A stretch of DNA of 32,000 bases. Origin: Alkalilimnicola ehrlichii MLHE-1 (GTDB lineage Bacteria; Pseudomonadota; Gammaproteobacteria; Nitrococcales; Halorhodospiraceae). The notes below the pieces were generated by a model. The model had not been told where the DNA came from. It ran no database searches and was given only the letters and a program-made list of their open reading frames with translations. Positions 9,808 to 11,183 of the stretch are shown piece by piece. The translations under genes and the position numbers were made by a program. Numbering within the stretch: the first letter of the stretch is position 1; every line of letters starts with the position of its first letter. The stretch covers positions 540,001 through 572,000 of the forward strand of contig NC_008340.1 of the NCBI RefSeq assembly GCF_000014785.1. The letters are read 5' to 3'.

Positions 9808-10098
9808 ATGGCCAATGACTGGTCGCATGGTCTCAATCCCGAGAAGGCCCTGATCTTTCGCATCATGCACCGGGATAACCTCCCATGGGTTCTGGAGCAC
9901 GGCCTTTACTGTTGCTCAGCGCCGGAGAAGACGGAGCGCTATCAGGCAGAGGCGCTGATTCACCACCACTTGCCTGTCTCTGCACTGCTGGGTATCGGTG
10001 CGTATACTGATCGGGTACGGGCCGACATCGAGAGTCAGGCGTTGGCTGTCGGTCTTCAGTTAAAGGTGGTCACGCGGCCCAACTGGTTCTTCTCATGA
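9808..10098 (+). pseudogene. darT: DarT (DUF4433 ssDNA ADP-ribosyltransferase toxin) remnant with an in-frame internal deletion, 96 codons
   Basis: The N-terminal LIFRIMHRDNLPWVLEHGLY resembles the DarT YHxTHxxNLxSIL..G motif. The C-terminal [27 protein letters not shown]...VVTRPNWFF resembles the DarT catalytic-Glu block and terminal P-x-W-Y/F-F. About 110 central residues of typical approx. 210-aa DarT proteins are absent. A 4-bp ATGA overlap with darG is retained. Confidence 0.65.
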
Positions 10099-11183
10099 TT
10101 GAGTACACCCGAGGCAACCTTCTGGACGCCGATGTGGAGGCGTTGGTCAATACCGTCAACACCGTGGGTGTGATGGGCAAGGGGGTCGCCCTGATGTTCA
10201 AAGAGGCCTTCCCCGAGAACTTTCGTGCCTACCAGGCGGCGTGCAAGAACCGGGAGGTGGTGCCGGGTCGTATGTTCGTGCACGAACGGAGTGCACTGCT
10301 CGGGCCGCGTTGGATCATCAATTTCCCCACTAAGCAGCATTGGCGCGGTAAGACGCGGATGGAGTGGATCGACTCCGGCCTGCGGGACCTCGAACGGGTG
10401 ATCCGCGTGAATGGGATTCGGTCCATCGCGCTTCCGCCGCTGGGGTGCGGCAATGGTGGGCTGCCATGGGCACAGGTGCGGCCCCGGATCGAGTCGGCGC
10501 TGCGCGACCTGCAGGACGTGCGGGTGGTGGTCTTCGAGCCGACCCGTCAATACCAAAATGTGGCCAAGCGCTCCGGGGTGGAGAAGCTGACACCGGCCCG
10601 TGCCTTGATTGCCGAGTTGGTGCGTCGGTATTGGGTGCTGGGGATGGAGTGCTCCTTGCTGGAGGTGCAGAAGCTGGCCTGGCTAATCGAGCGGCGCATC
10701 ATCGACCACGGCCTGGAGAACCCACTGGATCTGCAATTCAAGGCTCTTCGCTATGGGCCGTATTCGGATCGGTTGCGCCACCTGCTCAATGGGCTTGATG
10801 GCAGCTATCTGCGCAGTGACAAACGCATCAACGACGCGGGCCCTGAAGAAGTGGTCTGGTTCGATGAGGCGCGGCGCGACAAGCTGGGCATTTACCTGCG
10901 CAGCGCGGAGGTCCGCCCCTATCTTGGAGTGCTGCAGGAGGTCGACGACCTTATCGATGGCTTTCAGTCCCCCCTCGGTCTCGAGGTGCTGGCCACCCTG
11001 GATTGGCTTATCTGGCAGGAGGGTGTCGCGCCCACAATAGCGGACGTTAAAGAAGGGCTGCGGCGCTGGCCAGACGACATTGCCGGTCAGCGCAAGCTAC
11101 GGCTGTTTTCGGATCAGCTCATTGAGTTGGCGTTGGCGCGTTTGACCAGCCGGACTCCGGATCTTCAGGTCATCGCCACGTGA
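10095..11183 (+). CDS. darG: DarG antitoxin (N-terminal macrodomain DNA ADP-ribosyl glycohydrolase plus C-terminal DarT-binding domain)
   Basis: Macrodomain motifs [44 protein letters not shown] and [13 protein letters not shown]. 362 aa, the usual DarG length, and directly coupled to the darT remnant. Confidence 0.85.

Follow-up and report, generated by a model that had tools for sequence, protein, structure and literature searches.

The short gene upstream of darG in Alkalilimnicola ehrlichii MLHE-1 is, almost certainly, a dead deletion allele of a DarT2-type toxin gene. The 32-kb stretch of this genome analyzed here (the window) contains a 96-codon open reading frame (ORF), which we call mini-darT, followed by a complete darG. 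Comparison with a full-length darT at the corresponding locus of Halomonas indicates that a single internal deletion has taken the core of the toxin gene. We favor a reading in which mini-darT is a detoxified relic and DarG has been maintained as an orphan antitoxin, with darG translation still coupled to that of the stub; this fuller reading, coupling included, is probable rather than secure. The features on which the argument depends are the following, with positions counted from the first nucleotide of the window.

9798..9802, + strand: Shine-Dalgarno (SD)-like AGGTG, 5 nt 5′ of the mini-darT ATG; read from the sequence, function putative.
9808..10098, + strand: mini-darT, ATG start, 96 codons; an ORF with DarT profile matches.
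9808..9924, + strand: mini-darT codons 1-39, the DarT N-terminal strand/helix (RI.H..N.PW.L..G), corresponding to Halomonas residues 1-39; from alignment and tblastn (1-41).
9925..10098, + strand: mini-darT codons 40-96 and stop, the C-terminal block with E48 and PNWFF, corresponding to Halomonas residues 162-218; from alignments and Pfam (39-95 against profile positions 144-201).
10095..10098, + strand: ATGA stop/start overlap of mini-darT and darG, with no SD upstream; putative translational coupling site, read from the sequence.
10095..11183, + strand: darG, complete, 362 amino acids (aa), with a macrodomain at ~aa 1-150 and a C-terminal DarT-binding domain at ~aa 182-350; from NCBIfam, PADLOC and PDB matches.

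A first-pass annotation of this DNA had proposed the 96-codon ORF, an intact darG and their ATGA coupling, and all three were borne out, with a 4-nt overlap (the 96-aa and 362-aa products are ABI55856.1/WP_011628251.1 and ABI55857.1, respectively). The motifs it had read in the ORF are also present: IMHRDNLPWVLEHGLY at residues 19-34, YQAEALIHHH at residues 45-54 and RPNWFF at residues 90-95. The possibility that the ORF is unrelated to DarT can be set aside, as homology well beyond chance is seen in Pfam, PADLOC and NCBIfam. Pfam PF14487 scores 51.7 bits (gathering score 22.5, E=1.2e-13) over two stretches, the better of which places residues 39-95 on profile positions 144-201 of 201, and the PADLOC DarT profile matches with E=4.3e-20. 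NCBIfam NF048013 (toxin_DarT) also matches in two stretches, the better covering profile positions 148-204 of 204; its score of 70.9 bits is under the 150-bit equivalog cutoff, as expected because the 96-aa protein is partial. In a phmmer comparison with Thermus DarT, mini-DarT residues 11-36 match chain positions 7-32, and the two ends of mini-DarT are 71-81% identical to the two ends of Halomonas DarT. No other DarT matches occur elsewhere in the 32-kb window. An assembly artefact is ruled out, as the same 96-codon allele is found in two complete A. ehrlichii genomes (the second is CP184336) and in one independent Logan assembly.

The nearest DarG outside the species, at 81% identity, is that of Halomonas, where the locus order is hsdM, hsdS, GmrSD_N (DUF262) fragment, DarT (218 aa), DarG (364 aa), hsdR, YgjP-like. 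The search for a full-length allele in relatives, suggested by the first-pass annotation, is thus answered by this syntenic 218-aa DarT, which maps the deletion. Alignment of the two loci at the DNA level leaves one unbroken 366-nt (122-codon) in-frame gap in A. ehrlichii, with well-aligned flanks. The junction lies at 9924/9925, between codons 39 and 40 (SA/PEKTERY, with the slash at the junction), and residues 40-161 of the Halomonas allele are gone. The earlier estimate of ~110 missing central residues was right about the loss of the core and wrong about its size, which the DNA alignment puts at 122 codons (366 bp); the junction it had placed near codons 40-45 (SAPEK/TERY) is moved to codons 39/40 by the codon-level alignment.

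The sequences at the deletion edges offer a clue to how the allele arose. The window reads ...TGC TCA GCG / CCG GAG AAG ACG..., and the Halomonas codons are ...TCG GCA GCG GAG CAG... on the left and ...GAC CCG GAG AAG ACC... on the right. A CGGAG pentamer (microhomology) is present at both edges. Judged from the Halomonas allele in place of the true ancestor, replication slippage or microhomology-mediated joining is the likely mechanism. No full-length allele nearer than that of Halomonas was found in the protein database, the genome scan or the metagenome scan.

What was deleted determines what the stub can do. The published DarT active-site residues are R51, H65, Y71, M78, H119 and E160 (PMC9967889). 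R51 is needed for NAD+ polarization and proton abstraction, H119 is the base-locking His, and the DNA is held by the DNA-binding ADP-ribosylating turn-turn (ARTT) loop (PMC9967889). When Halomonas DarT is aligned to Thermus aquaticus (Taq) DarT 7omv, an E160A mutant, the Glu of YQAEAL falls on E160. Mini-DarT E48, in the same motif, corresponds to Taq E160 and also matches the equivalent residue of Mycobacterium tuberculosis (Mtb) DarT 7yk3. R51, H65, Y71, M78, H119 and the ARTT loop all fall within the deleted block. The stub keeps β1/α1 and the last ~57 residues, and the NAD+/DNA-binding core is gone. These alignments to Thermus and M. tuberculosis DarT agree with the first-pass annotation both on the retention of the catalytic-Glu block and on the absence of the core that binds NAD+ and single-stranded DNA (ssDNA). 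Because five active-site residues and the ARTT loop are deleted, the stub cannot be an active ADP-ribosyltransferase. Its predicted loss of activity follows from published mutagenesis of the deleted residues: R51 mutation alone abolishes DarT activity and toxicity (PMC9967889). E160A alone also abolishes toxicity (PMC5179494).

One could still propose that the 96-aa product is a genuinely minimal active DarT variant, as the first-pass annotation did in one of its three readings. The product does keep the catalytic Glu and the N-terminal strand that contacts NAD (H/I/T/N positions), and its coupling to DarG is preserved. However, ~56% of the domain is gone along with the residues and loop just named, the protein falls under the equivalog cutoff and has no confident fold, and its origin by deletion from a 218-aa allele of this locus is clear. 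Residue mapping rules out such an enzyme in effect, and we consider it extremely improbable. The fold was predicted for the stub as a single chain. AlphaFold2 (AF2), given a 24-sequence alignment, returned a mean pLDDT of 62 and a pTM of 0.50 and modeled the E160 strand as a helix; Foldseek found no significant match to this model, the best being DarT itself (E=0.48, TM 0.33). As a modeling result this means merely that no confident autonomous fold is predicted.

DarG, judged by its sequence, appears to remain a complete and constrained ADP-ribosyl-DNA glycohydrolase, with activity predicted. NCBIfam NF048014 (antitoxin_DarG) scores 427.8 bits (cutoff 250), with residues 2-350 covering profile positions 1-338 of 338, and the PADLOC DarG profile matches with E=2.2e-121. 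The match of residues 1-151 to the TaqDarG macrodomain (5m31) is free of gaps, and residues 182-350 match the C-terminal domain (CTD) of M. tuberculosis DarG, chain 7yk3_B (E=1e-13). N22, K29, K80 and G119 (TaqDarG numbering), which are catalytic or substrate residues of the macrodomain and whose mutation impairs TaqDarG (PMC5179494), are all kept. None of the 113 alignment columns that are invariant in 17 other DarGs is altered in the window DarG. Tajima relative-rate tests, run with four Halomonas-clade DarGs that have full-length partners and with eight outgroups, gave no excess of A. ehrlichii changes, whether in the macrodomain or in the CTD.

The two A. ehrlichii strains that share the deletion allow a direct look at what has happened since it occurred. 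Their darG genes differ by 7 synonymous and 3 non-synonymous changes, with a pN/pS of 0.14 and no indels. With ~75% of sites non-synonymous, the binomial estimate for a 7:3 outcome under neutrality is ~0.004, from a small sample. For the stub the counts are 4 synonymous and 2 non-synonymous, six changes in all and too few to resolve selection. In the surviving parts of the stub the rate of change is not raised, and every residue there that 90% or more of full-length DarTs conserve is intact.

In-frame mini-DarTs are not confined to A. ehrlichii. An exhaustive phmmer search with the 96-aa query gave 295 matches, in a type of search that sees only in-frame relics. Among these are at least 16 further independent in-frame junctions of the N- and C-terminal ends (N+C), and the junctions differ. 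P0136 (100 aa) joins IGN/RYQAEAL; this is the Rivihabitans allele, found in ~100 contigs. P0147 (103 aa) joins DPNH/PEKTERYQ, close to the junction position of the window, and in P0146 (99 aa) and P0179 (80 aa) the RYQAE block is wholly gone. The remaining examples are P0157, P0140, P0149, P0137, P0154, P0166, P0002/P0003, P0143, P0152, P0160, P0288 and P0284. In all three of the mini-DarT lineages that were looked up, a full-length macrodomain DarG adjoins the stub downstream.

The recurrence of these stubs raises the question of a functional mini-protein, one that binds or regulates DarG or acts as a decoy, with mini-DarTs being a maintained class. N+C mini-DarTs do recur across many lineages, P0002 and P0003 have nearly the same junction despite markedly different sequences, which hints at long persistence, and the Rivihabitans-type allele occurs in ~100 contigs. 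The unaccelerated retained segments, the unchanged conserved residues and the 4:2 pattern in the A. ehrlichii stub could be read the same way. However, the recurrence is largely an ascertainment effect of a protein search, and the varied junctions, with P0146 and P0179 lacking RYQAE, leave no common core beyond the two ends. PMC11481870 reports, citing Deep et al. 2023, that the DarG CTD sits in the DNA-binding/active-site groove of DarT, and a DarG-binding role for the stub is unlikely because most of the groove so occupied is gone. The AF2 model is of low confidence and non-native, the stub in L097 and L098 looks neutral, and the six substitutions in A. ehrlichii are too few to show selection. 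We therefore regard a functional mini-protein as quite improbable. The suggestion in the first-pass annotation that the peptide is kept for the sake of DarG gains no positive support from the mostly deleted interface groove, the poor model or the unresolving 4:2 changes.

To place these relics among other routes of decay, the loci must be counted from the DarG side. A DarG-anchored census covered 148 loci (76 evaluable species genomes and 72 evaluable metagenome contigs). DarT is full-length at 135 of them and decayed at 13 (9%). The decays comprise five frameshifts, one insertion, five cases in which only a 3′ remnant is left or the 5′ part is lost, and the Rivihabitans in-frame allele in two copies. 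Beside these 13 decayed toxins the DarG ORF is intact in 12, and N22, K29, K80 and G119 are all kept in 11; the exceptions are L043, with K29R, and L153, whose darG stops prematurely. Decay that begins with the toxin is common, and in-frame deletion is a minority route to it. An enrichment of in-frame lesions was considered and is not supported, with 2 of 13 census decays (one lineage) being in-frame internal deletions and the phmmer mini-DarTs ascertained as in-frame. The first-pass annotation was thus correct that frame and ATGA are preserved here, but its view of the in-frame lesion as special does not hold, as mini-DarTs recur widely and in-frame lesions are the census minority.

Several of the decayed loci have features of their own. 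DarT is almost erased in L043, L066, L152 and L153, yet the last 9-55 darT codons, ending ...W[YF]F and the stop, still adjoin the start of darG. At L153, the locus whose darG has the premature stop, the place of darT has been taken by a HigB/HigA-like pair. A second mini-DarT lineage (103 aa), with a junction near that of the window, lies at 4001-5429 of L097, L098 and L099. Its DarG follows a 12-nt spacer and has a GAGG SD of its own. At synonymous sites this DarG has diverged ~12-fold less (0.007) than the neighboring PQQ-repeat gene (0.088), a difference suggestive of a sweep or transfer of the darTG remnant in the recent past.

A plausible course of events for the window can be outlined. 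One 366-bp in-frame deletion removed the toxin core, and the lesion would be non-polar, since the stub retains its own SD, start codon, frame and native stop, the last overlapping the SD-less darG start. Ribosomes ending at the stub stop should still reach darG, whose translation would depend on them. Most likely, the stub now serves only as a leader ORF for coupled darG translation, and DarG would be kept as an orphan antitoxin within a working type I restriction-modification (RM) operon. It may serve to protect the cell from DarT that plasmids or other mobile elements bring in. The arrangement itself is not unusual: among ~80 DarTG loci read, most have a stop/start overlap without an SD, which is the norm of the family, and several loci with a spacer carry an AGGAG/GGAG-type SD. 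As for the proposed source of incoming toxin, 74 plasmids encode DarT homologs, of which 23 plasmids are mobilizable or conjugative, and phages carry many stand-alone DarG-like macrodomains. A detoxified relic with a retained DarG, one of the readings in the first-pass annotation, fits the data best, given the deleted core, the complete DarG and its apparent constraint since the deletion; the immunity or repair role attached to it is speculative.

A bolder form of the coupling model is improbable but worth stating. In-frame stubs may be selected repeatedly as the only toxin-null lesions that keep an SD-less darG translated by termination-reinitiation, turning DarTG into a stand-alone, constitutively expressed gene for anti-DarT immunity or DNA-ADP-ribose repair with a dedicated leader ORF. 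In a stronger version, the stub peptide itself would still dock on DarG and tune it. If true, conversion of a toxin into a leader would be a general domestication route for enzymatic (type IV-like) antitoxins.

Several points weigh against a maintained, translationally coupled DarG. The case for selection on DarG rests on 10 substitutions between two strains. Coupling is read from sequence alone. An in-frame leader is clearly not obligatory, because most DarT decays in the census are frameshifts or 5′ losses with DarG still intact, and the frame may have been kept by chance (~1 in 3). The search for other toxins covered the 32-kb window, and a second active DarT elsewhere in MLHE-1 would make DarG a conventional antitoxin acting in trans. 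An immunity role is speculative. Finally, the DarGs of L097 and L098 differ by 2 synonymous and 5 non-synonymous changes (pN/pS 0.81), which looks neutral; their stubs differ by 1 synonymous and 4 non-synonymous changes, and one genome has a +1 frameshift in the stub.

The main rival explanation is a young neutral relic, in which the in-frame deletion was a matter of chance and both stub and DarG are functionless but not yet disabled. The neutral pattern of the L097/L098/L099 stub and DarG and the stub frameshift fit this explanation, as do the scarring of both DarT and DarG in L087 on the same RM backbone, the stop codon in the L153 DarG, and the minority standing of in-frame deletions. A deletion that is young compared with the length of the branch would account equally well for the lack of rate acceleration. 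Orphan DarG is evidently not always maintained, because the L097/L098 DarG looks neutral and the L087 DarG is scarred. However, the A. ehrlichii deletion is older than the split of alleles that are ~3-6% apart at synonymous sites, and since that split darG has accumulated its 7:3 changes without indels. None of the 113 conserved columns is altered. In L043, L066 and L152, DarT is nearly erased and DarG is still full length with its catalytic residues, which argues that DarG can long outlive DarT. A neutral relic is thus a serious alternative but an unlikely one, and we prefer a DarG maintained after loss of its toxin.

The surrounding type I RM operon, in which mini-darT and darG sit between hsdS and hsdR, is itself intact, as hsdM, hsdS and hsdR are each full-length ORFs with Pfam matches. 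The neighboring features are as follows.

5904..8330, + strand: hsdM, type I RM methyltransferase, 808 aa, intact; Pfam HsdM_N and N6_Mtase, E=2.6e-99.
8278..9564, + strand: hsdS, specificity subunit, 428 aa; Pfam Methylase_S.
9610..9792, + strand: DUF262/GmrSD gene, a 60-codon N-terminal scar at the left edge of the variable hsdS-hsdR slot; weak GmrSD_N match, profile positions 3-32.
11304..14639, + strand: hsdR, restriction subunit, 1111 aa, intact; Pfam HSDR_N, SWI2_SNF2, ResIII and T1R_D3-like.
14636..15337, + strand: YgjP-like metallopeptidase gene, a conserved downstream partner of the RM island; Pfam YgjP-like, E=2.3e-56.

The YgjP-like gene has the same place in the gene order of Halomonas L001 and of L087. 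The DUF262/GmrSD scar is 73% identical to the 101-aa GmrSD_N fragment at the matching place in Halomonas. Within it, the block at 9649-9741 is 92.5% identical to Halomonas at the nucleotide level, and the adjoining darT pieces are merely 65-76% identical. In Halomonas and L087, too, the hsdS-hsdR slot is bounded on its left by this scar, cut at differing points (101 aa and 60 aa, respectively). The scar may anchor recombination during cassette exchange, or it may contain a regulatory element. The slot is filled differently at 3074-6764 of L087/L088, where the same RM backbone holds other cargo (a DUF6932 gene, a 308-aa gene and a 395-aa gene). In L087, DarT is down to 75 C-terminal residues, and DarG is an in-frame 60-aa scar made of its N-terminal 16 and C-terminal ~44 residues. 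The slot behaves as a defense-gene exchange hotspot that leaves in-frame scars.

Recombination has probably also touched this region within A. ehrlichii. The target-recognition region of hsdS is swapped between the strains (window 8330-9490 against L005 6203-7396), which are otherwise ~99% identical, and the blastn blocks aligned between them break across ~8330-9490. Strain divergence then falls in steps as one moves from hsdS, by way of scar, stub and darG, to hsdR (3.3%, 2.1%, 0.9% and 0.3%), a gradient that suggests a recombination tract entering from hsdS. Part of the strain variation was probably brought in by recombination, because hsdS is swapped and divergence falls toward hsdR. The scar differs between strains by 5 synonymous changes to 1 non-synonymous, and its 5′ end is probably inside the tract that swapped hsdS. 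Because the 5:1 pattern of the scar probably reflects recombination, the synonymous excess in scar and stub is not taken as constraint at the level of translation.

Directly 3′ of darG, at ~11164-11213, there is a strong hairpin with the darG stop (11181-11183) at the edge of its loop. The 65-nt fold has a predicted stability of ~-28 kcal/mol and no T-run. It could be a repetitive extragenic palindromic (REP)-like element, or an mRNA stabilizer or attenuator before hsdR. Consensus scans of 9600-11300 found no internal darG promoter and no terminator in the slot. Downstream of the RM island, small indels relative to strain CP184336 occur at window positions 16570-16851 and 17958-18037, in a region near a DUF3320 gene and an unannotated 347-aa ORF (15706-16749) without a Pfam match.

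The practical consequence concerns annotation. WP_011628251.1 is a relic of internal deletion, as are similar "DarT family proteins" of 80-180 aa, and finders of defense or toxin-antitoxin (TA) systems should score them neither as active toxins nor as functional DarTG. About 9% of the DarG genes in this clade adjoin a dead DarT, and these DarGs usually still look catalytically competent. Such loci are ready natural cases for asking if immunity to DarT brought in by plasmids, phages or competitors is what preserves an enzymatic antitoxin. The A. ehrlichii allele, whose junction is mapped and for which there is a full-length syntenic comparator, would be a clean model for translational coupling in DarTG. 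Current understanding of DarTG function is unchanged by these findings.

The closest known system is DarTG2 of Thermus aquaticus, M. tuberculosis and enteropathogenic Escherichia coli (EPEC), in which DarT2 is an ssDNA-thymidine ADP-ribosyltransferase. A. ehrlichii shares with it the darT-darG order and the stop/start overlap, a DarG with macrodomain N22/K29/K80/G119 and a C-terminal DarT-binding domain, and a stub homologous to both termini of DarT, catalytic Glu included. Unlike DarTG2, it has a toxin that is missing 122 central residues, and with them the ARTT loop and all but one of the six published active-site residues. The locus cannot act as a TA or abortive-infection module, because the toxin core is absent and only the antitoxin half is intact. 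The placement of DarTG in type I RM operons was already noted by Jankevicius et al. 2016 (PMC5179494), and the proposal of antitoxin domestication inside an RM locus was overstated; DarG simply outlived its toxin there.

The A. ehrlichii DarG also resembles orphan antitoxins and anti-addiction modules, including the DarG-like and NADAR enzymes of phages (AdfN; the chimallivirus DarG2-like enzyme), in being a predicted glycohydrolase without an active cognate toxin. By analogy with these, it could neutralize DarT supplied in trans. Stand-alone orphan-antitoxin counter-defenses have been published for phages, and orphan antitoxins are rarely described in bacteria (PMC11825919). Our literature search found nothing specific on internal-deletion DarT relics or on bacterial orphan DarG. 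Unlike the stand-alone phage enzymes, the A. ehrlichii orphan arose in place, on a bacterial chromosome, by decay of its own toxin, and it keeps a full CTD, whereas most phage matches are to the macrodomain only.

Finally, the locus shares with generic toxin-first TA decay a dead toxin beside a persisting antitoxin, a recurrent outcome among the DarG-anchored loci. It differs from the commoner decay by frameshift, 5′ truncation or insertion in that an in-frame internal deletion has kept start, stop and coupling. Taken together, these comparisons identify the locus as a degenerate member of DarTG2, a modest variant that carries an annotation caveat rather than a new system.

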